A stretch of 64,000 nt of DNA, taken from an uncultured Alphaproteobacteria bacterium. GTDB taxonomy: Bacteria; Pseudomonadota; Alphaproteobacteria; HIMB59; GCA-002718135. The stretch spans positions 11,303 to 75,302 of the forward strand of contig CACKSN010000002.1 of the NCBI GenBank assembly GCA_902602845.1, given 5' to 3'. Position numbers and translations under genes: made by a program. The number at the start of each line of letters is the position of its first letter. Within the stretch, counting starts at the first letter, position 1. Positions 1 through 13,902 of the stretch are shown one piece after another. The notes below the pieces were generated by a model, which worked only from the letters and a program-made list of their open reading frames with translations, was not told the DNA's origin and made no database searches.

Positions 1-588
1 TACTTACCTAAGAATTTAAATCCTCAACTAATTATAGGTAATCATGATAACAGAGATGAGTTTAAAATAAACTTTCCTAATATTGAAACTGATCCAAATG
101 GATTTATTCAATACTTTAAGGATATAGATAATAAACGTCTAATTTTTATAGATACGAATCTGATTAATACTCACCAAGGACATTATTGTGAAAAAAGACA
201 GGAATGGTTAAATAATATTTTAAGTAAGACTAATACAGATACGTATATCTTTATGCATCATAATCCACTTGCATTAGTAAAAGAGGAGAGTGATGGAATA
301 GGATTACAACAAAAAGAAGAGTTTCAAAAAATTTTAATTGAAAATAATAAGATGATAAAACATATTTTTTTTGGTCATCAACATATTACAAGTTCTGGTT
401 CTTATTGTGGTGTTACTTTTTCTTCCCCAAGAAGTACTTGGTCTCCTCTAATACCTAACTTTTCAAATGAATATCGTTTAGGAACAGCAAATACTGATAC
501 AAATTATAATGTTGCAATAATTAGATCTGACGCCCTAATTATTCATACAGAGGATTTTTTAAAAACAGAAGTTAATTGGTTTAAATAA
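1..588 (+). CDS. Calcineurin-like metallophosphoesterase, CpdA/Icc/GpdQ type (5'-truncated by window edge)
   Basis: Frame 1 is open from base 1 (YLPKNLNPQLIIGNHDNRDEF...IFIDT...HQGH...IFMHHNP...FFGHQH). It carries the GNHD, HHxP and GHxH metal-binding motifs. The ORF track start at 253 is internal. Confidence 0.85.
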   Translation, partial: YLPKNLNPQLIIGNHDNRDEFKINFPNIETDPNGFIQYFKDIDNKRLIFIDTNLINTHQGHYCEKRQEWLNNILSKTNTDTYIFMHHNPLALVKEESDGIGLQQKEEFQKILIENNKMIKHIFFGHQHITSSGSYCGVTFSSPRSTWSPLIPNFSNEYRLGTANTDTNYNVAIIRSDALIIHTEDFLKTEVNWFK

Positions 589-591
589 AAA

Positions 592-1698
592 TTATTTTTT
601 TTCGATTACAAAAATTTCGTTGTTAAAATAAAGTCCTTTATTTTTTTTAACTATTTTTTGAACTACTTTTTCATAGTTTTTAGTTTTTTCTATTTTCATT
701 ACTTTGTCGTCATCCATTTGATTGACATATATAGATGCATTCCAAGCAGAAAAAACTAATGATGTCGCTATACCTCCACTGATTTCTGTTGGTAGAGCTC
801 TCAATTTACATTTAATAATTCTTTTTTCTCCAAAAGATAAACTGCTTAATAAATCTTTATCTAAATTTTTCTTAAGATAAGAAATGATACTATTTCCAAG
901 AGAAGGAAAGGGGTTCTCTTTTGGCCAAATTTTTCTAATTATTTCATTAGCAGGATCTTTTCCTGCTGCATGAATAGTTAATAATTTCCCTTTTGATTTT
1001 AATGCTCTAATCATTGGTTCGATGACGTATTTTGATTTCTTTTCTGCAGAAATTCTTGAGCGATAAGGCTGTGAAGCAATAATAAGATCAAATTTATTAT
1101 CTGATTTTTTTTTGGTAGGTATTAATTCATTAACATTAAATTCTTGATCTTCGCGGTAGATAACCATCACTGAAGGTTCTTTATAAGTATGGTTACCTGA
1201 CTTTTTATTAATTTCTATATTCCATTTTTTTTCTAAAAATTCATTTTGTTTTCTTAATTGTTGGGCAAATTCAAGAGAAGTATCTCCTTTTAATTTAACA
1301 ATATTCCAATTAATTTTTTTCTGTTTAACTTCATTTTTTGATTTAAGGTTTGCGGCTTCCGCGTAGTGTAGATTTGAAATGACAAAAACAGTGTTCTTAT
1401 GTTCAACAAACCTGTCGGGTAATTTTTCTAAACCTAACCTTACATCTTCAATACTTATTTCTTTTGTGCAAATTAATAGAGGTACGTTAGGCCTAGCCTC
1501 GTGGCACTGACGCATAACATTCATAAGTAAGGAACCATCACCCATACCAGCATCAAATATTTTTATGCCAGGTTTTTGAGGTTTAATTTTATTTACGTGG
1601 GGGCGAATAGCATCGGCAATTTGATTTTTTTCATTTGTTGTTGTGACAAATAATAAGTATTTTTGTCTGTTATCATAAAACCTAAAATTTTTTTTCAT
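592..1698 (-). CDS. Conserved hypothetical protein, class I SAM-dependent methyltransferase-like
   Basis: 368 aa with IFDAGMGDG (motif I-like), KEIS and FDLIIASQPY (motif IV-like). It starts 2 nt after the Fe-ADH stop. Confidence 0.55.
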   Translation of the reverse strand: MKKNFRFYDNRQKYLLFVTTTNEKNQIADAIRPHVNKIKPQKPGIKIFDAGMGDGSLLMNVMRQCHEARPNVPLLICTKEISIEDVRLGLEKLPDRFVEHKNTVFVISNLHYAEAANLKSKNEVKQKKINWNIVKLKGDTSLEFAQQLRKQNEFLEKKWNIEINKKSGNHTYKEPSVMVIYREDQEFNVNELIPTKKKSDNKFDLIIASQPYRSRISAEKKSKYVIEPMIRALKSKGKLLTIHAAGKDPANEIIRKIWPKENPFPSLGNSIISYLKKNLDKDLLSSLSFGEKRIIKCKLRALPTEISGGIATSLVFSAWNASIYVNQMDDDKVMKIEKTKNYEKVVQKIVKKNKGLYFNNEIFVIEKK

Positions 1699-1700
1699 TA

Positions 1701-2813
1701 CTAATAAAGTCCCATTGATTTAGCAGAAGAGATGAAGGCTTCTTTATTGCCAATAAAGTTTTTACCTCGTTCCCCTAAAAACGCATCATCTACTATATTA
1801 TTCCATTCTTGAACAGGAACTTTTATTTCATTTAAGTTAAGAGGAACCTCTAAAGAACGCATAAATTCACTCAAATGATTTGCAGCATTCTCTAGATTAT
1901 CGTTAAAAATTAATTTTAGTCTTTCCTCAGCTACACTGTCAATTCCAACCATACTTTTAGTAATCATGGGTAAAGTAAATGAACAAGCAATACCATGCTG
2001 AATACCGTAATTGAGTGTCACAGGGTATGATAGATTGTGCGCAATAGCAGTTTTCGTATTGGAAAACGCTAAGCCAGCATGAACGCAAGCACGTGCAATA
2101 TTTGATCGTAATTCAACATTTCTCAGATCTTTTGAAAGCAATGGTAAATTTTCTAATACCAGTTTTGATGCTTGTATTGCATGAGAAGCAGAAATTGGGT
2201 TCGCATTAATATTCCAAATACTTTCCATTGAATGGGATAGTGCATCTAAACCAGTTGAAATGGTCAAGCCTAAAGGCTTATCAACCATAATAGATGGATC
2301 AATAATTGCTTTTTCTACATAAAGAGATTTATGCGCCAAAGATAATTTATTATTTTTTTCTTTATCCCATATTGTGGCCCAACACGTAAGCTCACTTGAT
2401 GTTCCAGAAGTTGTAGGTACCGCAATAATCTTGATTGGATTTTCAACTTTTGGACTTTTCTTATTTCGAACGAAACCTGTTAGATATTCTTGTTTATCTT
2501 TAAATGCGGCAATTGCTTTAGCTGTATCTGTAACAGATCCACCGCCTATAGCTAAAATATAATCTACCGTTTCATTGATTGAAGAAAATTTATTTTGTAA
2601 CTCTAAAATATCCTTATAGTCTGGATTAGGCTGAACATCCGTCATAATAGATAAAGGTGGATTTGAAGATGAATTTAATTCATCGCTATATTTTTTAAAA
2701 ATTTCTTCTGGATGAGTGATTATGATGTAGTTCTTATTTTTAAGAGCATCATGTACTTCTTTAAATCTATTTTCTCCAAAAATAATTTCGACTGGGTTAA
2801 AATAATTCCACAT
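1701..2813 (-). CDS. Iron-containing alcohol dehydrogenase, phosphonate-associated (phosphonoacetaldehyde reductase/PsrA-like, TIGR03405-like)
   Basis: GGGSxxD, PTTSGTSSE, DALSH, AIAHNLSY and HG Fe-ADH motifs. The WxYxNPV N-terminus and GxRGKNFIG C-terminus resemble the phosphonate-associated clade. Confidence 0.8.
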   Translation of the reverse strand: MWNYFNPVEIIFGENRFKEVHDALKNKNYIIITHPEEIFKKYSDELNSSSNPPLSIMTDVQPNPDYKDILELQNKFSSINETVDYILAIGGGSVTDTAKAIAAFKDKQEYLTGFVRNKKSPKVENPIKIIAVPTTSGTSSELTCWATIWDKEKNNKLSLAHKSLYVEKAIIDPSIMVDKPLGLTISTGLDALSHSMESIWNINANPISASHAIQASKLVLENLPLLSKDLRNVELRSNIARACVHAGLAFSNTKTAIAHNLSYPVTLNYGIQHGIACSFTLPMITKSMVGIDSVAEERLKLIFNDNLENAANHLSEFMRSLEVPLNLNEIKVPVQEWNNIVDDAFLGERGKNFIGNKEAFISSAKSMGLY

Positions 2814-2817
2814 TACT

Positions 2818-3897
2818 TTAAATTGATTTTGCCGCTTTAGTTAAAATTGTCATTTTCTCAATTGCTTGTTCTCGCGTAAAGAAACCTAAACCACAATCTG
2901 GTGCAGCTATTAAACGGTGTTCATCAATATGTTCTAGTGAATCTTTGATACGAACTCTTACTTCTTCAACAGACTCCATTCTACTTTTTGCAATATCAAT
3001 AAATCCAAAAATTACTTTTGTTTTAGTAAATTTTTCTAAAAGATTTAAATCATTATGCCTATGTGAATCTTCTAAAGATACTTCATCAATAGTTGAGTCA
3101 TCTACAAGTGATGCAATTCTATCATAAGCATCTAGATCAGCCTTTTTATATCCTTCTGAATCTAATGAGTTAGGATAACCACAACAAATATGGCAAACGC
3201 GTTGCACTTCTTTAGGTATACCATGCATCATTCTTTCTAAATTTTCCATACCGTAAGAATGGGCTTCATCAGGCTTTCTGGCAAATACTGGTTCATCAAT
3301 TTGAATATACTGACAACCTGCATCTACAAGTGCTTTAACTTCTTTATTCAGGGCTAATGCTAAATCAAAACCAAGTTTCTTCATGTCATCATAGTAATTA
3401 TTTGCAATTGAATCTGTAATTGTCATTGGTCCAGGTAGCGTAATTTTAACTGGGTTTTTTGTAAATTGTTGTGCACTCTTCCAGTCTAAATGCATACGTA
3501 TTTCTTTACTTGAAATTGGTGCAACGATAGTTGGAAGGTCTGCTTCGAACGCACCTTGTCTTACTGACTTATGTGTAACTTCCTGAAAACTTACACCATT
3601 TAAAAATCGACATTGATATAATACATAACTCTCGCGCCTAACTTCCCCATCTGTTGGAACATCAATACCCGCACTTACTTGATCAGTTATAACTTCTTTA
3701 ATTGCTGCTAAAAATAATTTTTCAGCATCCGCACCTGCAGACTCTAATGCTTTTTCATATGCGCCAGGTGACCAATTTGATAATAATCCTTTTGATGCTT
3801 TTCTCTCTTCTTCTGATTTTGTACCTAAAAACCAATCTTGAATGGGTGTTTGTTTAGGTTTTGGATAAGCACCTATTGTAGTTGTTTTAAGAGGCAT
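2818..3897 (-). CDS. Cobalamin-independent methionine synthase II family protein (single-barrel MetE catalytic-domain-like, Zn-thiol alkyltransferase)
   Basis: TTTIGAYPKP, DGEVRR, KITLPGPMT, IQIDEP, HICCG (H-x-C Zn ligands), SLE and PDCGLG motifs. At 359 aa it lacks the N-terminal barrel of full MetE. Confidence 0.85.
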   Translation of the reverse strand: MPLKTTTIGAYPKPKQTPIQDWFLGTKSEEERKASKGLLSNWSPGAYEKALESAGADAEKLFLAAIKEVITDQVSAGIDVPTDGEVRRESYVLYQCRFLNGVSFQEVTHKSVRQGAFEADLPTIVAPISSKEIRMHLDWKSAQQFTKNPVKITLPGPMTITDSIANNYYDDMKKLGFDLALALNKEVKALVDAGCQYIQIDEPVFARKPDEAHSYGMENLERMMHGIPKEVQRVCHICCGYPNSLDSEGYKKADLDAYDRIASLVDDSTIDEVSLEDSHRHNDLNLLEKFTKTKVIFGFIDIAKSRMESVEEVRVRIKDSLEHIDEHRLIAAPDCGLGFFTREQAIEKMTILTKAAKSI

Positions 3898-3920
3898 CTA
3901 TTTTTACTCCCATTTAAATT

Positions 3921-3954
3921 TAAAATAAAACAGCGGCTTTTATAAAGCCGCTGT
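3921..3954 (-). terminator. Intrinsic terminator / mRNA-stabilising hairpin after the binding-protein gene
   Basis: ACAGCGGCTTT-TAT-AAAGCCGCTGT forms an 11-bp stem (3930-3954), followed on the minus strand by TTTATTTT. Confidence 0.75.
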
Positions 3955-3984
3955 AATAAAAAGTTAATAATAAATAATCTCAAA

Positions 3985-5238
3985 TTACATAAGATCGTTT
4001 ATTTCTTCCATCATTTCTTCTTGAAGATCTGCCATATCATCAGCGTCGCCTGTAGCAATTTCTTCCGTGAAATCATAGATTACCTGTGTAACAGCTAATC
4101 CATTTTCTCCAGGATACGCAAACCAATCAGCAAGAAGTGGAAGTTGTTCAACAGCAGTAAGTTTATTAGGGTTTTGACTATAGAAGTCACCTAATAAATC
4201 ATTCGCTGCTTTGTTTGGTGGAACATATCCAGTTGTTTCAGCAACTAATGCAGCACCGATACCTGATGTAATGAACTTTAAGAAAGTCCATGCAGCATCA
4301 ACTCTTGCTGGATCATCAGATGTAGACACTAACATTGCAGCGTTTCCACCTGCTGGTAATCTTGCTGGTGTTCCATTGTTTACTCCAGCCATTCCAGGGA
4401 ATGGTGCAGTTTTTAAAACAAAGTCTGCCTTTGCAGCATTAACTGAACCCAAGCTTGAAGTAGACCAGAACATCATACCAATAGTACCTGCGTTAAACGC
4501 AGCTTGACCATCAGCAATTGAATAGTTTGGCATATTACATCCGCTCATGATTGATTTCATTTGCTCTAACGTTGCAAGTCCTGCATCTCCACCCATATTT
4601 ACAGCTCCATCTTTAACCATTGGAACATTCTGAGTATGCATTAATGCTTGGTGGAACCAGTTACCTGTAATGTTCCAACCAAAGTATAGAGTTCCTTTAC
4701 CAGCTGCTTCTAATTTATTACATGCTGCAATAACTTCGTCCCAGTTAGTTGGAATACTATCTACACCTGCTTCAGCTAATAAATCCATATTATAATATCC
4801 AACTGGTGTTGATACAGAAAATGGTAATCCATAAACTTCACCACCGAATGTTGAAAGACTTAACATAGCAGAATGGTAACCATCTTTTTCAAAAGCTGCT
4901 TCTTTTGCGATAAATGGCTCTAAAGATTTAGCAATACCTTTGTCAACTAGAGGTGCCTGTCTGTTAAGACCTTGCATTGTTACATCTGGTAAATTACCTG
5001 AAGTAGACTCTCTGAAGATTGTTGCAGTTGCATCCTCATAGTTTTCATAAGTTGCTCTAAATTTAACTTGAATATCTGGATGTGCTTTTTCAAACTCTGG
5101 CATAATAGCTTGAAACGTAACATCGAATAATCCTGAATAAGGATAAGCTACTTCTATTTCAATAGACTTAGCTGAATTAACAGAACCATAAAAACCGAAA
5201 GCTAATACGGCTGCCAATCCTGTAATTAATTTTTTCAT
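3985..5238 (-). CDS. ABC transporter substrate-binding protein, CUT1/UgpB-like
   Basis: Signal peptide, FEKAHPDIQV, LPDV, YGLPFSVSTPVGYYNMDL, PTNWDE, AAWTFLKF and TGYVP. Strong RBS GGGAGG. Confidence 0.85.
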   Translation of the reverse strand: MKKLITGLAAVLAFGFYGSVNSAKSIEIEVAYPYSGLFDVTFQAIMPEFEKAHPDIQVKFRATYENYEDATATIFRESTSGNLPDVTMQGLNRQAPLVDKGIAKSLEPFIAKEAAFEKDGYHSAMLSLSTFGGEVYGLPFSVSTPVGYYNMDLLAEAGVDSIPTNWDEVIAACNKLEAAGKGTLYFGWNITGNWFHQALMHTQNVPMVKDGAVNMGGDAGLATLEQMKSIMSGCNMPNYSIADGQAAFNAGTIGMMFWSTSSLGSVNAAKADFVLKTAPFPGMAGVNNGTPARLPAGGNAAMLVSTSDDPARVDAAWTFLKFITSGIGAALVAETTGYVPPNKAANDLLGDFYSQNPNKLTAVEQLPLLADWFAYPGENGLAVTQVIYDFTEEIATGDADDMADLQEEMMEEINDLM

Positions 5239-5290
5239 TTAATCCTCCCGATTGAATATAATAATTTAATCTAACATGTAGTCCCAAAGG

Positions 5291-5319
5291 GTTACAATTT
5301 TATTACGAAAATATTACTA
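5291..5319 (-). promoter_or_regulatory. Putative Pho box (three 11-bp-spaced half-sites) upstream of the binding-protein gene
   Basis: Minus strand reads TAGTAAT-ATTT-TCGTAAT-AAAA-TTGTAAC, similar to the PhoB consensus CTGTCAT-A(A/T)A(A/T)-CTGT(C/A)A(C/T). Confidence 0.55.
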
Positions 5320-5374
5320 AAAAATAAGCTTATTTTTCCACAGCAATAGAGAAAAATTAGAGAAAAAATGATTT

Positions 5375-6817
5375 TTACCAGGGTAGTGAGAAGGTTTTTA
5401 CATTAGTAAAGCTTTTCATTGCTTCAATTACACCTTCTTTATAACCAAGACCTGAATCTTTAATTCCTCCAAAAGGAGACATTTCAATTCTATAGCCTGG
5501 AACTTCCCAAATATTTACAGTGCCAACATTTAAGCCTTGAATATATTTTTTTGCTCTCATGAAGTTATTTGTACATACACCAGATGATAATCCGAATGCG
5601 GTTGAATTAGATATTTTCATTACAGCTTCATCGTCATTAGGCACACGAATGATTGGTATAACTGGACCAAATGTTTCTTCTAAAACTAATTCACTTTTAG
5701 GATCAACATGATCTACAACTATTGGAGGTAACAAAGCACCCTTTCTTCCAGGGTGATATAAAATTTTTGCACCGTCTTCTTCAGCCATAGAAACTCTTTT
5801 ATCAAAAAGTTCTGCAGCTTGAGCATTAACAACAGTACCTAAGTCTGTTTCCATATTCATAGGATCACCAAATTTAATTTTCTTAGCACGCTCGAGAGCC
5901 ATTTCAACAAATTGATCTGCAATGGATTCTTGAACCAGTATTCTTTTAACAGCTGTACAACGTTGACCAGAGTTTTTCGTTGCTCCAGTAACAGCTAGCT
6001 CAACAGCTTTTTTAAGATCATCACCATCTAAGTCATTTAAAACAATTAAAGGATCATTACCACCAAGCTCAAGAACTGTTCTTTTGTATCCAGCTTGTTC
6101 AGCAATTAATTTTCCTACACCTACACTGCCTGTAAAAGTAATTAGATCAATATTTGGATTCTTGATCATTTCTGATCCGATATCTTGAGGCCATCCAGTT
6201 ACAACTGAAAACATTTCTGGTGGTAAACCTGCTTCATATAAAACATCAGCAAGTACCATTGCTGTTAAGGGTGTTAATTCTGTTTGTTTACATACAGTAC
6301 AATTATTAGTTGCAATTGAAGGTGCAATTTTATGCGCTACCATATTCAAAGGATGATTGAATGGAGTGATTGCTGAAATTGCCGTTAAAGGTTCTCTTAT
6401 GGTAAATATTTTTCTCGCTTTTCCATGCGGAGTTAAATCACAAGAAAATATTTCTCCATCATCAAGAATACAAAGTTGAGCCGTTAATGAAAAGACATCA
6501 AAAGCTCTTCCTACTTCGTATAAAGAATCTTGTTTTGAGATACCAAGTTCTAAAGTAATAATATCAGAAATTTCTTCTTTTCTTTTAACAAGTACTTCTG
6601 CAGCAGTTTGAAGAATTTTTTGTCTCTCGTATCTTGTAAGTTTAGGTTGGTAATTTGCAGCAATATCTAAAGCCTTTCTAGCATGCTCTGCAGTACCGGC
6701 TGGAACCGTTCCGATTACTTCACCTGTAAAAGGGTACTCAACATTTATTGTTTTATCTGAGGTAACTTTTTCTCCAGCAATACGCATTGCTTCATTAATC
6801 ATTTTTTTGTGCATCAT
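5375..6817 (-). CDS. phnY: Phosphonoacetaldehyde dehydrogenase
   Basis: Aldehyde dehydrogenase motifs (ITPFNHP, ELGG, SGQRCT, EETFGP) plus the PhnY-specific [22 protein letters not shown] and [13 protein letters not shown]. Overlaps the phnA stop. Confidence 0.93.
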
Positions 6818-8055
6818 AGGGCTCCGTTAATTGCATAGTAAAATGCATCATAGTTATATAATTGTTTGTTAGTATCTAAATTTTGTAATTTTAAATTTGA
6901 TATGAATGGCACTTCTCTTTCATGAAGTCCACCGTGTGAACGTAAAGGTTCATTTAATCCAGAAAGATTGTGTTTATCTTCTGATGAACCAATAGTCATA
7001 AATTCTGAAGACATACATATAATATCCCCCATTCTATCTGGAGGTAAATTATAAGAAGAGCATCCTTCGTCTTTTGTTAAAACAACTTCTATATCTTTTA
7101 TTTCTTTTATAGCATCTACAACTGAATCTATCTTACTTTTGTCTTCTAAATAAATTGTTGCAAAAGAACCAAGTGAACCATGATGCACAACATATGGATC
7201 TGTAATTGGAAGAATAACTTTAGCCATGTTTGGTTCAAATTTTTTATCTAAATAATCTTGTAAAAATATTGCATTAGGTGAACCATCTTCTTTTGATTTT
7301 GGTTTCATACCGTGATCTGCTGTGATGATTATAGAAACATTCTCCTTATTTAAAAGACCAATATATTTATCAAACATTGCATAAAATTTATTTGCTGTTT
7401 CATTTCCTGGCGCATATTTGTGTTGAATATAATCCGTAGTCGATAAATACATGATATTTGGTTTGAACTCTTCAAGAAGCTTTACACCTGCAGCCATTAC
7501 AAATTCAGAAAGTCCTTCAGAGTATACTTCTGGCACTGGCATCCCTAACCAATCGTTTACATTATCTATACCATTGAGATCTTTTGTTGCTTGATCAGAT
7601 TTTTCAGCAGAAAAACAAATAGCTCTCTCATCATCAAAACTTAATCCGTTTCCTAAAAGTGTTCTCAGCTTATCTTTTGCAGTAACAAGCGCAATTTTAG
7701 AACCAGAATTGTAAAATTTTTCAAAAATAGTTGGTGCTCGCATATATTTTGGGTCATTCATCATTACTTCTTCACCGGTCTCGGGTGTATAAAAGAAGTT
7801 TCCGCATATACCGTGAACAGAACTTGGTTGGCCTGTTACAATCGAAATATTATTTGGATTTGTAAAACTTGGAATAGCGCTGTGAACTAGTAGGTTTTCA
7901 CCACTTGCAATTAATTTATCAAGGTTTGGTGTAAGATTTGATTTTGATGCTTCTTCGAGATACTCTTTTTGACTACCATCAAGGCAAATCACAATAGCAG
8001 TTTTTGAAAAATTACTTGGATATTCTCTTTTATTAATTTCTAAGTTATCGGACAC
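6814..8055 (-). CDS. phnA: Phosphonoacetate hydrolase
   Basis: Alkaline-phosphatase superfamily: [56 protein letters not shown] and LRSHGG. GTG start. Confidence 0.93.
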
Positions 8056-8133
8056 AATTTCATCTAATATATATTATTAAAAATACGAATTTATAGTTAT
8101 CTGCTAGTTAAACTCAATGATAATTTGAATATT

Positions 8134-8177
8134 TGTTAATAAAATTGAAATAAAACTGAAATAAATCGATTTAAAAT
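8134..8177 (+). promoter_or_regulatory. Putative Pho-box-like promoter for the ABC ATPase/permease operon
   Basis: TGTTAAT-AAAA-TTGAAAT-AAAA-CTGAAAT has an 11-bp period and is followed 9 nt later by a TAAAAT -10 element (8172-8177). Confidence 0.45.
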
Positions 8178-8231
8178 ATTCTCAAATTTAATAAAATTTT
8201 GTAGATTAAAGTTAAGATAGAGGGGGAATGA

Positions 8232-9365
8232 GTGGGGACTATATCACTTAAAAATATTTCAAAGTCATTTGGGTCTACACAAGTACTTAATAATTTGAAT
8301 GTTGATATAAACGATGGAGAATTCTTAACATTAGTTGGTCCATCTGGTTGTGGTAAATCTACATTACTTAGAATAATTGCAGGATTGGAACAACAAACTT
8401 CGGGCGATGTATTAATAGATAATAAAAATGTAAATAGAGTTAGAGCCAGTGAAAGAGATTTGGCAATGGTATTCCAATCATATGCTCTTTATCCTCATCT
8501 CACAGTAAGAAGAAATTTAGAAACTCCATTAAGACTAAGAGACTATAATGCATTTGAAAGACTGCCCTTAATTGGTAATTTTTCTCCAAGCAAAAAGGAT
8601 AAGACAGAATCTATAAATCAATTAGTAAATAAAACTTCTGAAACTCTAAAAATTTCAGAACTATTAGATAGAAAACCTGGACAATTGTCAGGTGGTCAAA
8701 GACAAAGAGTTGCTCTTGGTCGTGCTATGGTTAGAGAGCCTGTTGCCTTTTTAATGGATGAACCTCTTTCAAATTTAGATGCGGCCTTGAGAGTTCACAT
8801 GCGATCTGAACTATCTGAACTTCATAATTCACTTAAAACTACTTTTGTGTACGTAACACATGATCAAGCAGAAGCGTTAACTATGTCTTCTCGAATGGCT
8901 GTTATGATTGATGGAAATTTATTACAACTAGATACACCTCAAGAAGTATATGACAATCCTTCCTCATTAAGTGTGGCTCAATTTGTTGGAAGTCCAAAAA
9001 TAAATATATTTAAAGGAACTGCCGACTCTAGTGGGACTGTAAGTTTTCTCAATGTTAATCTAAAAAGAAAAAGTTCTGAAAGTAATACAGACTTACATAT
9101 TGGTATTCGACCAGAACATTTAGAAATTACAAATGAAAGTAATGAAAATACATTTAGTGGAACAGTAGCATATAGAGAAAATTTAGGTTCAGATATTTTC
9201 TTTCATGTAAATATTGAAGACGGTTCAAATAAAATAATTGTAAGGGGCTTACCACAATTTACAAATCAAATTTCAAACGGTTCTAATGTGAATATTAAAA
9301 GAGTTTCAGATAAAGCATTACTATTTAGTGAAGCAGGAATGAGGGTTCAATTTACTAATGCATAA
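8232..9365 (+). CDS. ABC transporter ATP-binding protein, UgpC/MalK-like
   Basis: GPSGCGKST, VFQSYALYPH, LSGGQRQR, DEPLSNLDA, YVTHDQ and a C-terminal GIRPEH TOBE domain. Confidence 0.93.
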   Translation: MGTISLKNISKSFGSTQVLNNLNVDINDGEFLTLVGPSGCGKSTLLRIIAGLEQQTSGDVLIDNKNVNRVRASERDLAMVFQSYALYPHLTVRRNLETPLRLRDYNAFERLPLIGNFSPSKKDKTESINQLVNKTSETLKISELLDRKPGQLSGGQRQRVALGRAMVREPVAFLMDEPLSNLDAALRVHMRSELSELHNSLKTTFVYVTHDQAEALTMSSRMAVMIDGNLLQLDTPQEVYDNPSSLSVAQFVGSPKINIFKGTADSSGTVSFLNVNLKRKSSESNTDLHIGIRPEHLEITNESNENTFSGTVAYRENLGSDIFFHVNIEDGSNKIIVRGLPQFTNQISNGSNVNIKRVSDKALLFSEAGMRVQFTNA

Positions 9366-10314
9366 TTCAAAAGCTCATATATGGTTTATTGCACCAGCAA
9401 TAATACTGATGATAATTATTTTAATTTTTCCTCTTTTTCTTGCAGGAGGAATTTCTTTTACTGACTATAATTTAGGAAACAAAACATTCGAGTGGGTTGG
9501 ACTAGAAAATTATGACAAAATGTTCAATCGCAAAACATATGTCAAAATGATTTGGGCCACAGCGACGTATGTTATTGTTGTCGTTCCAATTTCTGTTGTA
9601 CTTGGATTATGTGCTGCTATGCTCTTAAATTCACTAAGGTTTGGCGCTGATATATATAAAACAATTTTCTTTCTTCCAGTTATGGCTACTCTTCTTGCAA
9701 TGGCGATTGCATGGGAATTTACTCTTCATCCAACATTAGGAATCGTAAATAGTTTTTTAGCAAATGGGTGTGGAGGAGTTAGAGAATTCATTCTTGGTTT
9801 TCATTGGTTACCTTGGGTAGACTCTCAAGAAAGCTGGTATGCAGTGGCGTGTGCAAACAACATGGATTTTCCATATTGGTTAAAACAAAAAAATACTGCG
9901 ATTTGGACAGTATGTTTCATAGGAATTTGGCAGGCTTTTGGTTTTAATATGGTTTTATATTTAGCTGGCTTAACAAGTATACCAAGGGAGTTATACCAAG
10001 CTGCAGAAATGGATGGAGCAAAATCCACATGGGAACAATTTAAACTTGTTACATGGCCAATGCTTGGTCCAACAACGTTGTTTGTTGTCACTATTACTAC
10101 CATTAGAACATTTCAAGTATTTGATACCATCGAAATACTTACTAAAGGTGGTCCATCAAAAACAACGTATGTCATGATGTATGCAATCTTTGAAAAAGCT
10201 ATTCAACAAAACTTAACAAGTATCGGTGCAGCAATCACTGTCGTCTTTATTGGGTTTATTCTTGTGTTAACGTTTTTCCAAAGATATGTCATTGAGAAGA
10301 GGGTTCATTATTAA
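9358..10314 (+). CDS. CUT1 ABC transporter permease, UgpA/MalF-like
   Basis: About six TM segments and an EAA loop (ELYQAAEMDGA). Confidence 0.9.
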   Translation: MHNSKAHIWFIAPAIILMIIILIFPLFLAGGISFTDYNLGNKTFEWVGLENYDKMFNRKTYVKMIWATATYVIVVVPISVVLGLCAAMLLNSLRFGADIYKTIFFLPVMATLLAMAIAWEFTLHPTLGIVNSFLANGCGGVREFILGFHWLPWVDSQESWYAVACANNMDFPYWLKQKNTAIWTVCFIGIWQAFGFNMVLYLAGLTSIPRELYQAAEMDGAKSTWEQFKLVTWPMLGPTTLFVVTITTIRTFQVFDTIEILTKGGPSKTTYVMMYAIFEKAIQQNLTSIGAAITVVFIGFILVLTFFQRYVIEKRVHY

Positions 10315-11207
10315 TGGAAGCTAAACAATATATTGGGGAAGGTTGGAAGCATGCAATCTTAATTATTGGGGCAATCGTAGTGATGCTCCCTTTTTATATG
10401 ATGGTTTCTATGTCATTAAAGTCTCAGCAAGAAATCCAATCAATATCTGGCGGTCTTATTGGTGCGCAAGAAACTCAAACGTTTCCCGTATGTGTTAAAA
10501 CTGGTTATTCAGAAGAAACATGTACAATGAAACCATATCAATACAACTATTGGTTTGCTTTTGAAAAAGCTCCTATTCCTAGATACTTAATGAATGGTGT
10601 CATTGTTACTTTATCAATCTTCATCATTCAGGTTCTTGTTGCCTTACCGTGCGCCTATGCACTCGCCAAGTTGCGGTTTTACGGGCGAGAGTTTGTTTTC
10701 TCGATGGTTTTATTTTGTTTGCTCATACCAGTACACGGAATTGCGCTTCCATTGTATGTTATGTTGGCCCAGGCAGGATTAGTTGACACCTATTCCGCCT
10801 TAATACTCCCCTGGACAATATCGGTGTTTGGAATCTTTTTAATGCGGCAATTCTTTATGACGGTACCAGATGAATTAATTGATGCCGCCAGGATGGATGG
10901 TATGGGAGAGTACGCTATCGTATGGAAAGTAATGCTTCCAACTGCAATACCAGCGTTACTTGCTTTTGCAATATTCTCAGTTGTTGCACACTGGAATGAT
11001 TATTTCTGGCCTCGAATGGTAATAACAGGAAATAGAGATCTCTTTACGCCACCACTTGGTATAAGAGAATTCAGAGGCGGAATTGATAGTGATGAATTTG
11101 GTCCTATGATGGCTTCGATAGTTACAGTAACCGTTCCTCTAATTGTTGCTTTTATAATCGCGCAAAAACGATTTATTGAAGGAATTACTTTGACAGGCAT
11201 GAAGTAA
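10314..11207 (+). CDS. CUT1 ABC transporter permease, UgpE/MalG-like
   Basis: PDELIDAARMDG, WNDYFWP and QKRFIEGITLTGMK motifs. Confidence 0.9.
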   Translation: MEAKQYIGEGWKHAILIIGAIVVMLPFYMMVSMSLKSQQEIQSISGGLIGAQETQTFPVCVKTGYSEETCTMKPYQYNYWFAFEKAPIPRYLMNGVIVTLSIFIIQVLVALPCAYALAKLRFYGREFVFSMVLFCLLIPVHGIALPLYVMLAQAGLVDTYSALILPWTISVFGIFLMRQFFMTVPDELIDAARMDGMGEYAIVWKVMLPTAIPALLAFAIFSVVAHWNDYFWPRMVITGNRDLFTPPLGIREFRGGIDSDEFGPMMASIVTVTVPLIVAFIIAQKRFIEGITLTGMK

Positions 11208-11221
11208 ATTCTTATCTACTG

Positions 11222-12070
11222 ATGACATTGTCAGTAAATTTTATTTTTATCTTAATTCTTGTATCTGCTCTATGTCATGCAGTTTGGAGTGCTATAATTA
11301 AATCAAGTAAGAACCCTTTATCCTTAATGGGTATAACATCTGTCTTAGAAGTTACTATTTTTTTACCTTTAACATTTACTGTACCATTTCCTACTTTAGA
11401 GGTTTGGTATTTTTTAATTGCAACCGTAATCATTCATGTTATTTATAGATTGAATGTAATTTATTCTTATAGATACGGAGATCTTTCGTACATATACCCA
11501 ATTTCTAGAGGAAGTTCGTGTCTGTTTGTTGCAATCATCAGTATTTTATTTTTAAGTTCCAATATTAGTGTTGCTGGTTTTGTTGGAATATTAATTGTAT
11601 GTATTGGATTATTTTTAATTTCTTATTCTAAAAATTTATCTTTTAACTTCAGAGGTTTTGCTCTTGCGATATCAACAGCTATTCTAATTACTGCTTACAC
11701 TTTAGTTGACGGGGTCGGGGTTAGATTTTCTGAAAATGGATTTTCCTATATTTACTGGCTCTTCACACTTAATGGAATACCTTTGCTAATTATTGGTTTG
11801 ATCTCGAAAGATGGTTTACGAAAAAGAAAAACATACACTTTTAGATCTGGGATTGCTGCTGGTATATTTGCAACAAGTAGTTACGCAATTGTTGTTTGGA
11901 GTATGCAATTTATAGAAATAGCTTATGTCTCTAGTATTAGAGAAATAAGCATTGTGTTTGCTACTATTATTGGAATGCTTTTCTTATTTGAGAAGAATGC
12001 AAAATCTAGGATAATACCTTCTATTTTAATAGTGAGTGGTATTTCGGTTGTTTATTTTCAAATTCTATAA
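11222..12070 (+). CDS. EamA/DMT membrane protein, phosphonate-utilisation-associated type
   Basis: About 10 TM segments. SALCHAVW, GDLSYIYPISRG, YTLVDG and SSIRE resemble the TIGR03340-like subfamily. Confidence 0.75.
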   Translation: MTLSVNFIFILILVSALCHAVWSAIIKSSKNPLSLMGITSVLEVTIFLPLTFTVPFPTLEVWYFLIATVIIHVIYRLNVIYSYRYGDLSYIYPISRGSSCLFVAIISILFLSSNISVAGFVGILIVCIGLFLISYSKNLSFNFRGFALAISTAILITAYTLVDGVGVRFSENGFSYIYWLFTLNGIPLLIIGLISKDGLRKRKTYTFRSGIAAGIFATSSYAIVVWSMQFIEIAYVSSIREISIVFATIIGMLFLFEKNAKSRIIPSILIVSGISVVYFQIL

Positions 12071-12105
12071 GGAAAAAATGTAGACTTTTTGCACGAAAAT
12101 TTTAT

Positions 12106-12276
12106 ATGAATTTTATGACTGAGGATATTGTCGAAGTAGATCCAAAAACTGAAACTATCTCTTGCGATGGTGGTGAAGATGGTTTAGGACATCCCGCAGT
12201 TTATTATACTTTCAATAATGATAACAGAATTGTTTGTGGTTATTGTGGTAAAATATTTATAAAAAAAGAACAGTAA
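12106..12276 (+). CDS. Small zf-CHCC zinc-finger protein (NDUFS6-like); not in the ORF track
   Basis: Hand translation: MNFMTEDIVEVDPKTETISCDGGEDGLGHPAVYYTFNNDNRIVCGYCGKIFIKKEQ*, with the CDGG..LGHP.VY...CxYC signature. Alternative start at 12115. Confidence 0.85.
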   Translation: MNFMTEDIVEVDPKTETISCDGGEDGLGHPAVYYTFNNDNRIVCGYCGKIFIKKEQ

Positions 12277-12278
12277 AA

Positions 12279-12632
12279 ATGTATAAAGAATCTTGGGGTC
12301 AAAAAAGAATTTGTCCAATGTGTAGTAAGCAATACTACGACCTGGGAAGAACGGAACTGGAATGTCCAGAATGTGGTAAACTAATTGAAGTAACTACAAT
12401 GACCAGACCAAGACGTGGTAGAAAACCTGGTAGTACTAATGCTGCCCCTCTAACAAATCCTATTCCTGCAAAACCAAAAGAAAAAGATGATGATCTTGAT
12501 ATCGATAATTTGGATTTGGATAACAACGATGATAATCTTGAGGATGATACTGTTTTATTAGAAGACGAAACAGAAATTGATCCAATAGCCGAAGGTATTA
12601 AGCCTAAAGAAGACGGCGAAGAAGAATACTAA
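12279..12632 (+). CDS. FYDLN acid domain protein (TIGR02300 family)
   Basis: WGQKRICPMC..YYDL....CPECG followed by an acidic tail. Confidence 0.85.
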   Translation: MYKESWGQKRICPMCSKQYYDLGRTELECPECGKLIEVTTMTRPRRGRKPGSTNAAPLTNPIPAKPKEKDDDLDIDNLDLDNNDDNLEDDTVLLEDETEIDPIAEGIKPKEDGEEEY

Positions 12633-12654
12633 AATTTCAATAAAAATTTAGAAG

Positions 12655-13902
12655 ATGTTTAAGGTACTACAAAACACTTGGGCCCTTTTTTTTGGCTTTG
12701 CTCTAATTAGTCTTGGTCATGGATTGCAAGGAACACTAATCGGTGTGCGTTCTGTTTTAGAAGGTTTTAGTTTTTTTGCATCAGGACTTATTATAGCTGG
12801 TTATTACGTTGGATACTTAACTGGCGCATTAACAATTCCAATATTTTTACAACGTGTTGGTCATATAAGAGTTTTTGCTGCTTTAGCATCGCTTGCTTCT
12901 ATCGCTATATTATTACACTCAATATTTGTTCATCCGTATTCATGGATGTTTATACGAATATTAACTGGTTTAAGTCTTGCTGGAATTTATGTGATCATGG
13001 AAAGTTGGTTGAATGAAAAATCAACTAATCAAACTCGCGGTCAATTACTTTCTGTTTACATGATTATTACTTTTGTATTCGTTGGGGCAGGACAATTTTT
13101 ATTAAATTTAGGTGATCCAGCTAAAGTTGATTTATTTATTTTAGTATCAATCTTATTATCATTTGCACTTCTTCCTATTCTTTTATCTTCAACAGAACAA
13201 CCTAGTACAGAAAGTCCTAAATTTTTTTCTTTAAGAGAATTTTATAGTGTTTCACCTTTAGGTTTTGTTGGTGCCTTAGCAACTGGTTTATCGCATAGTG
13301 CAGTTTTTGGATACGGTGCAATTTATGCATCATCTATTAGTTTAAGCTTATTTGAAATTTCTCTGTATATGATGATTATAACGTCAGCTGGCGCCCTATC
13401 TCAATGGCCTATTGGATATTTGTCAGATAGAATTGATAGACGTATTATTCTTATTGGTGTTTCTTTTATGGCTTCAGGTTTGAGTTTATTTTTTGTTTTT
13501 GCAAATTTTATGCCGCTAGCATTATTCTTAATTTTTACTGGTCTTTTCTCTATTGCATGTTTACCAATGTATTCACTTACGGTTGCGCATACAAATGACT
13601 TCTTACAACCTAATGAGATAGTATCAGCAAGTGCAACCTTTGGTATACTTATTGGCATTGGATCAATTATCGGACCTTTGTTTGTTTCTAGTTTCATGGA
13701 AATTTTAGGAGCGGTAGGTTTTTACATCTATTTATTTTTAATACATGGACTGCTAGGACTTTTTGGTTTGTATAGAATGACACAAAGAATTAAACCACGT
13801 GATCTTGAATCACAATACAATCCTTTACCACGAAATATTAGTCCTGCCGGTATGGAAATGAATCCAGTTACTGAGCCAACTGAGGACGAGAAAGTCTTTT
13901 AA
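12655..13902 (+). CDS. MFS transporter, YcaD-like
   Basis: About 12 TM segments with RVGHIRVFAA, ESWLN, QWPIGYLSDRIDRR and AHTND motifs. Confidence 0.85.
   Translation: MFKVLQNTWALFFGFALISLGHGLQGTLIGVRSVLEGFSFFASGLIIAGYYVGYLTGALTIPIFLQRVGHIRVFAALASLASIAILLHSIFVHPYSWMFIRILTGLSLAGIYVIMESWLNEKSTNQTRGQLLSVYMIITFVFVGAGQFLLNLGDPAKVDLFILVSILLSFALLPILLSSTEQPSTESPKFFSLREFYSVSPLGFVGALATGLSHSAVFGYGAIYASSISLSLFEISLYMMIITSAGALSQWPIGYLSDRIDRRIILIGVSFMASGLSLFFVFANFMPLALFLIFTGLFSIACLPMYSLTVAHTNDFLQPNEIVSASATFGILIGIGSIIGPLFVSSFMEILGAVGFYIYLFLIHGLLGLFGLYRMTQRIKPRDLESQYNPLPRNISPAGMEMNPVTEPTEDEKVF

Follow-up and report, generated by a model that had tools for sequence, protein, structure and literature searches.

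Why does a gene that resembles half of a methionine synthase stand inside an operon for phosphonate breakdown? The question arises from a 64,000-nucleotide stretch of DNA from an uncultured alphaproteobacterium (GenBank assembly GCA_902602845.1, contig CACKSN010000002.1, forward-strand positions 11,303 to 75,302), called the window below. It has a G+C content of about 31%, and its closest relatives are SAR11 (Pelagibacterales) single-cell genomes. The gene lies at 2818..3897 on the minus strand and encodes a single-barrel, MetE-fold, zinc thiol methyltransferase-like protein of 359 residues, as judged from its open reading frame (ORF), its Pfam match and an AlphaFold model. The plus strand at 2818-3897 has many stop codons, so the finding is the minus-strand gene. 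Residues 53-357 match PF01717 (Meth_synt_2; E 5.2e-35), and the N-terminal domain PF08267 was not found in the protein with Pfam. A first-pass annotation of the window had reported an intact H-x-C...E...C zinc site in a zinc-thiol alkyltransferase fold, half the length of MetE and devoid of the folate domain, encoded between a binding-protein gene and an iron-containing alcohol dehydrogenase (Fe-ADH) gene with a gap of 4 nt. Each of these points was borne out, and the strand can now be added. In all 16 aligned relatives the zinc motif H236-x-C238 ... E276 ... C335 is unchanged; MetE, with a Salmonella coding sequence of 2265 nt, is about twice as long as the protein; and the gene ends at 2818, with the Fe-ADH start at 2813. 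The gene is real and intact, and its zinc site and operon placement are far beyond chance expectation.

The AlphaFold model (pLDDT 84.6) places the zinc site in a (beta/alpha)8 barrel and fits 3RPD as well as MetE structures, which puts the protein in the MetE superfamily. 3RPD was the top fold match (TM 0.82/0.87, 29% identity) and also the top PDB sequence match (E 5e-44), MetE structures following at E 6e-18 and weaker. Family membership of the operon proteins was decided by the curated NCBIfam bit-score cut-offs. The methionine synthase models all scored below theirs (195 vs 406, 194 vs 392 and 115 vs 258 bits), the archaeal-type models (195 vs 406 and 115 vs 258) falling far short, and the full-length MetE model TIGR01371 gave 92 bits against a cut-off of 930. 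According to the available text of Price et al. 2021 (PMC7857596), 3RPD is MesD, a core methionine synthase which needs MesX (DUF1852) and oxygen and makes no use of methyl-folate.

The relationship to MesD and MetE was examined by phylogeny, as the first-pass annotation had proposed. Relatives were taken from the best 80 of 539 genome-collection matches and the best 80 of 530 metagenome matches; the metagenome scan was centred on a distant family member, and sequences were clustered into rows at 92% identity. The tree comprised 67 rows (IQ-TREE quick search, SH-aLRT support only), its references being three MesD genes from plasmids, each next to a gene annotated as MesX or DUF1852, and the C-terminal barrel of MetE from Salmonella. 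Six rows (L131, L153, L095, L154, L134 and L111) resulted from faulty ORF extraction on high-GC contigs and had branch lengths near 10; they were kept in the tree and excluded from the residue table and the neighbourhood counts. The family of the query formed one clade of 60 rows (SH-aLRT 90), separate from MesD (support 100), within which 16 rows make up the query clade. Identity to the plasmid MesX-adjacent MesD proteins was 30.9-32.8% (157-174 bits), and membership of MesD by close similarity was not found; the similarity criterion for MesD in the available text of PMC7857596 is about 72% identity or a BLAST score of at least 390 bits. Sequence comparison points to a distinct MesD-related family whose members are predicted to work like MesD yet are not MesD.

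The four zinc ligands are also invariant in 54 family rows, three MesD rows and one MetE row. In 3RPD the methionine contacts are given as Ser22, Glu73, Asp188 and Tyr226 (PMC7857596, available text). E85 and D201, equivalent to the contacts with the homocysteine amino group, and Y241, the MesD-specific Tyr, are present in 54 of 54 family rows, and these conserved amino-group contacts would argue for an amino-acid thiol. Added to them is a set of residues peculiar to the family: R97, R207, K252 and H279 in all 54 rows, and R87 and R280 in 49 rows each. All six are missing from the MesD and MetE rows, and W22 and F23 are likewise family-specific. The family also has an N-terminal insert of about 20-35 residues (DWF...), and the query clade alone has a further insert (GLL..W) with G37, L38 and W42 in 16 of 16 rows. 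The family-specific residues lie mostly near the catalytic residues in sequence. Such a cationic and aromatic set would suit an anionic donor with an onium or ester methyl group.

The amino-group contacts bear also on an earlier suggestion, that the enzyme might open an epoxide phosphonate. An alkyltransferase like XecA (epoxyalkane:CoM transferase) would couple a thiol with a phosphonate at an epoxide or some other activated carbon, and the dehydrogenase encoded next would then oxidise the hydroxy-thioether so formed. XecA has a similar fold and zinc site, and in the Xanthobacter epoxide pathway a dehydrogenase follows the XecA-type transferase, as one lies 3′ of the gene here. The following dehydrogenase is the part of the suggestion that stood, with no other positive support for epoxide opening, save that the short-chain dehydrogenase/reductase (SDR) of one relative, L127, weakly resembles IsoH of the isoprene-epoxide pathway (124 vs 350 bits). 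However, the homocysteine-type contacts are kept, no epoxide-forming or coenzyme M genes were seen in the scanned loci, and no XecA was present among the 40 listed of 576 matching plasmid records. An epoxide phosphonate is moreover implausible as a bulk ocean nutrient, the island around the gene being found in dozens of SAR11 single-cell genomes. We regard this explanation as very improbable.

Like MesD, the protein is a single (beta/alpha)8 barrel of about 350 residues with no folate domain, the same zinc ligands, the Glu and Asp contacts to the amino group of homocysteine, the MesD-specific Tyr and a methyl donor that is presumably no folate. It differs in its identity of 31-33%, its separate clade, its N-terminal insert, its six extra cationic residues and a Ser to Ala change, and in its partner, which is an importer where that of MesD is an oxygenase. 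No MesX was found beside any family member scanned, and a search for MesX (PF08908) in the genome of the window (G000) was also negative, a weak result because G000 is 67.6% complete and the control genomes gave no response either. With MetE the protein shares the catalytic C-terminal barrel, the zinc site and the thiol-activation chemistry; it differs in having half the length, no PF08267 and about 24% identity in fold alignments. Full-length MetE has two barrels in about 750 residues, PF08267 being its N-terminal folate-tail domain. In betaine-homocysteine methyltransferase (BHMT), a zinc-bound homocysteine thiolate directly attacks the methyl group of an onium donor, with no cofactor. The chemistry that we propose for the query would be identical, whereas BHMT/MmuM-type proteins (PF02574) are not homologous to it at the sequence-family level.

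The operon is tight and runs, on the minus strand, through phnA, phnY, the binding-protein gene, the MetE-like gene, the Fe-ADH gene and a gene for a 368-residue protein. PhnA, phosphonoacetate hydrolase (6814..8055, minus strand), scored 469 bits with TIGR02335 against a cut-off of 408, and PhnY, phosphonoacetaldehyde dehydrogenase (5375..6817, minus strand), 797 bits with TIGR03250 against 636. The Fe-ADH (1701..2813, minus strand) is PhpC-like and a candidate 2-hydroxyethylphosphonate (HEP) dehydrogenase; TIGR03405 (Phn_Fe-ADH/PsrA) is by far its top model, at 361 bits and under the cut-off of 423.7. By gene content, a dehydrogenase-family gene together with PhnY and PhnA, the operon would count as a catabolic HEP cluster. 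The available text of Piazza et al. 2026 describes the PhpC dehydrogenase with PhnY-PhnA as a dedicated HEP route (PMC13576164). Our operon resembles the clusters described there in having a PhpC-like Fe-ADH with bona fide PhnY, PhnA and a transporter, and no PhnW inside the operon; it differs in that the MetE-like gene and a gene of methyltransferase fold flank the dehydrogenase, and in that the Fe-ADH is under the TIGR03405 cut-off. The words 'methionine synthase', 'MetE' and 'methyltransferase' do not occur in the main text of that paper, whose supplementary cluster tables might list SAR11 clusters or a MetE-like neighbour.

The binding protein (3985..5238, minus strand, 417 residues) is by Pfam a Ugp-like (CUT1, SBP_bac_1/8) substrate-binding protein of an ATP-binding cassette (ABC) importer, and the UgpB model gave 66 bits with it against a cut-off of 411. 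The importer's MalK-like ATPase, which has a TOBE domain, and its two permeases, also assigned by Pfam, are encoded divergently (8232..11207, plus strand). The ATPase and permease genes are syntenic in all SAR11 loci and have 58-73% identity in non-SAR11 loci, in which binding-protein orthologues of 60-63% identity stand directly upstream of the MetE-like gene. The PDB sequence matches of the binding protein, to sugar and UgpB entries, were all distant (E 6e-18 or weaker) and allow no inference of a ligand. Identity with AepX was rejected, since the binding protein has PF13416/PF01547 and AepX, in the available text of PMC8316502, carries pfam13343.

Does the gene travel with phosphonate enzymes or with the importer? 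Within the query clade, comparison of neighbourhoods gave the Ugp-like importer, not the phosphonate enzymes, as the most frequent neighbour. The importer binding-protein orthologue lies upstream in 9 of the 12 query-clade rows with at least 1.5 kb of upstream sequence, usually accompanied by the same permeases and ATPase where the contig extends to them; the importer is also upstream in L095, whose contig is excluded from the counts. PhnA or PhnY above cut-off was found within 9 kb in SAR11 (four rows), the L087 group and L094. The phosphonate link claimed in the first-pass annotation thus recurs in these three lineages, and it did not extend to L076, L093, L080 and L116, which have no phosphonate gene in reach. 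Four unrelated dehydrogenase classes occur beside or near the gene: the Fe-ADH, 4 nt downstream in SAR11; a HIBADH-like protein, about 25 nt downstream in L086-L088; a zinc-dependent alcohol dehydrogenase (Zn-ADH) in L091 and L094; and a generic SDR, about 96 nt downstream in L127. For the Zn-ADHs the top model was TIGR03366 ('phosphonate catabolism associated alcohol dehydrogenase'), with 209-271 bits against a cut-off of 328. Among the genome loci, those of SAR11 are syntenic down to 72% identity; only two of 401 Pseudomonadota genomes, G000 included, had a match at E 1e-60 or better.

The importer link and the cationic/aromatic signature together lead us to propose transfer of a methyl group from an imported, anionic, activated donor to homocysteine. 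We put at roughly one half the probability that the protein is a zinc-dependent thiol S-methyltransferase which uses an imported methylated anionic donor, the remainder of which enters the phosphonate route. It would be one of the 'core' methionine synthases, in a family distinct from MesD though related to it. In the MetE fold, a thiol bound to zinc has a lowered pKa, and as a thiolate it attacks the methyl carbon. In the query, zinc held by H236, C238, E276 and C335 would activate an amino-acid thiol, most probably homocysteine, and the thiolate would attack the methyl carbon of a small anionic activated donor that is presumably neither a folate nor a product of MesX. In the query clade the adjacent Ugp-like ABC importer would take up the donor or a precursor of it. 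What is left after demethylation would pass, in SAR11, to the alcohol dehydrogenase, then to PhnY and to PhnA, probably in that direction, with PhnW nearby. The core synthases MesA, MesB and MesC of anaerobes depend on corrinoid methyl carriers such as MtrA or CoFeSP. No corrinoid-protein gene was seen in the scanned loci, and where corrinoid and folate are both lacking, a realistic donor must carry an activated methyl group, either an onium (N+ or S+) methyl as with BHMT or a strong-acid methyl ester as in Ada-type repair.

Several observations weigh against this proposal. Being related by descent, the SAR11 loci amount to a single lineage. In three of the 12 informative rows (L094, L076 and L098) the importer is missing next to the gene. 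The sole neighbours of the gene in L076 and L093 are succinate-semialdehyde dehydrogenase and glutathione reductase, and a search for PhnA in the genome of L076 found none; in L080 and L116 the importer and a phosphodiesterase are present with no phosphonate enzyme nearby, and the two PhnA genes of the L080 genome both lie away from the MetE-like locus. The Fe-ADH (361 vs 424 bits) and the Zn-ADHs (209-271 vs 328) are under their family cut-offs. In 49 of 54 family rows, Ala takes the place of the Ser with which MetE and MesD contact the carboxylate of homocysteine, and the thiol could therefore be a different one. It is chemically difficult for a thiolate to demethylate secondary or tertiary amines or methyl ethers, which narrows the range of plausible donors, and the candidate donors considered below are a guess from sequence context. 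Finally, a hairpin may attenuate co-expression of the binding-protein and MetE-like genes, and the RNA-library contigs that cover the operon may include DNA and are no proof of a single transcript.

The hairpin (3930..3954, minus strand) is GC-rich, is followed by a T-run and is terminator- or attenuator-like. It has an 11-bp stem with six GC pairs and lies inside the 87-nt gap 3′ of the binding-protein gene. A hairpin stands in the same position in eight of nine folded loci, with differing sequences, and seven of those eight have the T-run. About 25 nt, including a GGGAG ribosome-binding site, separate it from the MetE-like start codon, which leaves little space for a separate promoter. An Rfam scan of window positions 1-13000, with E up to 1, returned no family, and a SAM riboswitch before the MetE-like gene was rejected on that result. 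RNA-library contigs from four studies cover the operon; in runs X2 and X4 they span the junction of the binding-protein and MetE-like genes, and in runs X1, X4 and X8 that of the MetE-like and Fe-ADH genes. The MetE-like gene is probably expressed. Summed contig depth was 1100-2000 over the binding-protein gene in two runs and 16-94 over the MetE-like gene, a contrast from which no attenuation is concluded, contig depth being unsuited to ranking genes.

Which donor might the importer supply? Within the proposed S-methyl transfer, an N-methylated 2-aminoethylphosphonate (AEP), especially the trimethyl form, and a P-O-methyl ester of HEP or of another phosphonate or phosphate are candidates of about equal standing, each somewhat doubtful when taken singly; the remaining odds go to another imported methylated organophosphorus compound. 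For N-methyl-AEP speak the transaminases of the sister clades, which need a primary amine, and the presence of PhnW in the island. Trimethyl-AEP is described in the available text of Zangelmi et al. 2023 (PMC10590968) as frequent in nature and no substrate of the FAD enzymes studied there, with TmpA/TmpB as the sole route. The dehydrogenase, as the most regular enzyme partner in the query clade, speaks for a methyl ester, be it of HEP or of another phosphonate.

The ester donor may also be taken on its own, the protein being then an Ada-like O-demethylase of phosphonate or phosphate methyl esters, which would free HEP or a sugar phosphate for consumption by the dehydrogenase and PhnY-PhnA. The Ada protein strips methyl groups from methyl phosphotriesters. 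The dehydrogenase directly 3′ of the gene in SAR11 (4 nt), the L087 group (about 25 nt) and L127 (about 96 nt) fits this, as does an importer of sugar or glycerophosphodiester type. Esterases of two unrelated folds stand beside family members, Metallophos in L080, L116 and L157 and PehA-like in L119, L138 and L128, and L157 has a kinase beside a methyltransferase, a combination by which methyl phosphate esters are made (the match to GntI is weak, 153 vs 357 bits). However, we know of no natural O-methyl 2-hydroxyethylphosphonate, and none was met in the phosphonate literature consulted; sulfonate methyl esters would not explain the sister clades in taurine clusters; and the phosphodiesterase could itself hydrolyse such an ester, making the enzyme redundant. 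An O-demethylase of this kind we consider decidedly unlikely.

Genes of the sister clades stand in taurine and AEP clusters. They are accompanied by PotD-like binding proteins or by transporters of the Opp type, and their neighbours include a class-III (taurine-pyruvate-type) aminotransferase, alanine dehydrogenase, an Xsc-type thiamine pyrophosphate enzyme, and acetate kinase or Pta. One sister-clade locus, L119, has PhnW-PhnA-PhnY, and PehA-like phosphonate-monoester hydrolases are found in L119, L138 and L128. These neighbourhoods tie the whole family to importers and to the breakdown of C2 phosphonates and sulfonates. We tentatively extend the proposal to a family of importer-coupled enzymes making methionine directly from methylated C2 phosphonates and, in the sister clades, from methylated C2 sulfonates. 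The donors would be tri-, di- or monomethyl-AEP or phosphonate methyl esters, and N-methylated taurines in the sister clades; the demethylated skeleton would go to PhnW, HEP dehydrogenase, PhnY and PhnA or, for sulfonates, to Tpa and Xsc.

The same neighbourhoods and the genome content bear on a simpler explanation, by which the enzyme is a general or back-up methionine synthase of the S-adenosylmethionine (SAM) cycle using a phosphorus-free donor, such as glycine betaine, choline-derived betaine or dimethylsulfoniopropionate. Choline-derived betaine would come from imported glycerophosphocholine cut by the phosphodiesterase; the phosphonate genes would be neighbours and not partners, and the location in a Pho island would follow from methyl demand under phosphorus starvation or from choline-phosphodiester scavenging. 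Consistent with this, the importer is Ugp-like and goes with a phosphodiesterase, which stands between the importer and the MetE-like gene in L080 and L116, 3′ of the gene in L157 and convergent in SAR11. MetK is directly upstream in L094 and about 3.5 kb from the gene in the 72%-identity SAR11 clade, and a SAM-methyltransferase-fold gene accompanies the MetE-like gene in SAR11 and in L086 and L088, where it is beside the importer. In L157 a choline/ethanolamine-kinase-fold gene and a methyltransferase gene follow the phosphodiesterase, and generic aldehyde dehydrogenases (ALDHs) with betaine-aldehyde dehydrogenase as top model occur in L087, L091 and L094. L076 and L093 have the gene without importer or phosphonate genes, and no MetH or full-length MetE above family cut-off was found in G000 or G402.

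Set against this, G000 already has a BHMT-type gene (PF02574) elsewhere and, with the query, three core MetE-like genes, and MetH is present in G401. The informative alcohol dehydrogenases match TIGR03405 and TIGR03366, not the choline dehydrogenase GbsB (119-136 bits). The second ALDHs were rejected as betaine-aldehyde dehydrogenases, all matches being under cut-off and near other ALDH models. PhnA and PhnY, moreover, recur in three lineages. MetH is present in the genome of L080 and as pieces of a split gene in G338, and the L076 genome has neither MetH nor full-length MetE above family cut-off; with so mixed a content the MetE-like enzyme is not consistently the only methionine synthase of its genome, nor consistently a spare. 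We judge a back-up role with a phosphorus-free donor unlikely. If the donor were glycine betaine or similar, the enzyme would be an ordinary analogue of BHMT.

The first-pass annotation knew of no characterised MetE-family enzyme in phosphonate catabolism, and our literature searches likewise found no paper describing one. A search on phosphonate and cobalamin-independent methionine synthase gene clusters found nothing related. Price 2021 (PMC7857596) has no 'phosphon' or 'Pelagibacter', Zangelmi 2023 (PMC10590968) no 'methionine', 'PF01717' or 'methyltransferase', and Murphy 2021 no 'methionine'; a 2023 review (PMC10574752) has methionine only as SAM. In the MesX/DUF1852 literature no follow-up naming the MesD donor was found. 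The protein belongs to a distinct MesD-related family which accompanies importers through phosphonate and sulfonate clusters.

If the proposed transfer occurs, methionine would be regenerated without folate, B12 or MesX. SAR11 is the ocean's most abundant heterotrophic bacterial group, and the marine phosphonate and sulfonate cycles would be linked to the methionine/SAM cycle, free of cofactor and independently of B12 and folate, in abundant ocean bacteria. A trimethyl-AEP donor would mean a second route for that compound beside TmpA/TmpB, and any imported organophosphorus donor a new substrate class for marine phosphorus scavenging. A whole family of 'methionine synthase II' genes that stand unannotated in clusters for phosphonates and sulfonates would gain a suggested role, and the family may help with the question of the MesD-type methyl donor.

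The surroundings of the operon are those of a Pho-type island. Left of the window on the same contig (L170) are pstC, pstS and phoR, and a PhoU-like gene with a permease. PhnW is in the island there, above its cut-offs, and a PhnZ/TmpB-like HD-domain oxygenase (L170:8151-9251, minus strand) scored 202 bits against a cut-off of 215. The presence of PhnW, the HD oxygenase and the other island genes indicates an island able to handle AEP and HEP. The partner of the oxygenase is a 174-residue dual-specificity-phosphatase-like protein, with no recognisable iron/2-oxoglutarate hydroxylase. Near phoR and pstS, a PlcP-like metallophosphoesterase (270 residues) is followed by a GT4 glycosyltransferase (350 residues) at L170:4246-6073, which we take to resemble the PlcP-Agt lipid-renovation pair of phosphate-starved SAR11. 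A 166-residue SET-domain protein beside phoR (L170:3650-4150, minus strand) and a 210-residue cupin/ureidoglycolate-lyase-like protein between PhnW and the phosphodiesterase (L170:10447-11079, plus strand) have no obvious island role.

At the 3′ end of the operon, the 368-residue protein (592..1698, minus strand) has a class-I SAM-methyltransferase fold with no assigned substrate. Its FDAGMGDG motif is invariant, and its model (pLDDT 85.2) has histamine N-methyltransferase as top fold match (TMt 0.63), all matches being generic small-molecule methyltransferases; no curated family match was found in Pfam or NCBIfam, and no sequence match in PDB. Convergent with the operon is the 3′ part of the Metallophos phosphodiesterase gene (1..588, plus strand; SpdA/CpdA-like by Pfam and NCBIfam), the full gene of which encodes 262 residues (L170:11102-11890). 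Beyond the importer genes lies an EamA-family membrane protein (11222..12070, plus strand; Pfam).

In the 72%-identity SAR11 clade, a methyltransferase-fold gene 33-36% identical to the window copy is found beyond the importer (L062:62-2453) and overlaps the start of an M24 peptidase/creatinase-family gene. At L157:887-3963, a truncated MetE-like gene (72% identity) is followed by the phosphodiesterase, a choline/APH-kinase-fold gene and a class-I methyltransferase gene. The kinase-fold gene has a weak match to GntI, guanitoxin kinase (153 vs 357 bits), and the kinase and methyltransferase could make methyl phosphate esters or phosphocholine.

The second core MetE-like gene of G000 is on contig 13 (L084:8123-9172, minus strand); it encodes 349 residues, is 48% identical to the query and is a member of a sister clade. 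It is flanked on one side by a taurine-type group of Pta, class-III aminotransferase and alanine dehydrogenase genes, and on the other by a 302-residue gene without assignment and then an Opp-type transporter with a 705-residue binding protein. The third PF01717 gene is distant, with about 26% identity to the query (L167:1216-2133, plus strand; G000:C11:16994-18031). Its extended match on contig 11 contains one in-frame TGA, which could reflect a broken gene, a misextended frame or a recoded codon. A 341-residue relative with 28.5% identity, annotated as uroporphyrinogen decarboxylase family, is carried by plasmid pUSP2 of Aminobacter sp. MSH1 (L174:6001-7026). Its operon includes a tripartite ATP-independent periplasmic (TRAP) transporter, a CocE/NonD hydrolase, a citryl-CoA lyase, a CoA-transferase and an extradiol dioxygenase; the relative is a further importer-linked core MetE-fold enzyme, in an aromatic-catabolic context.

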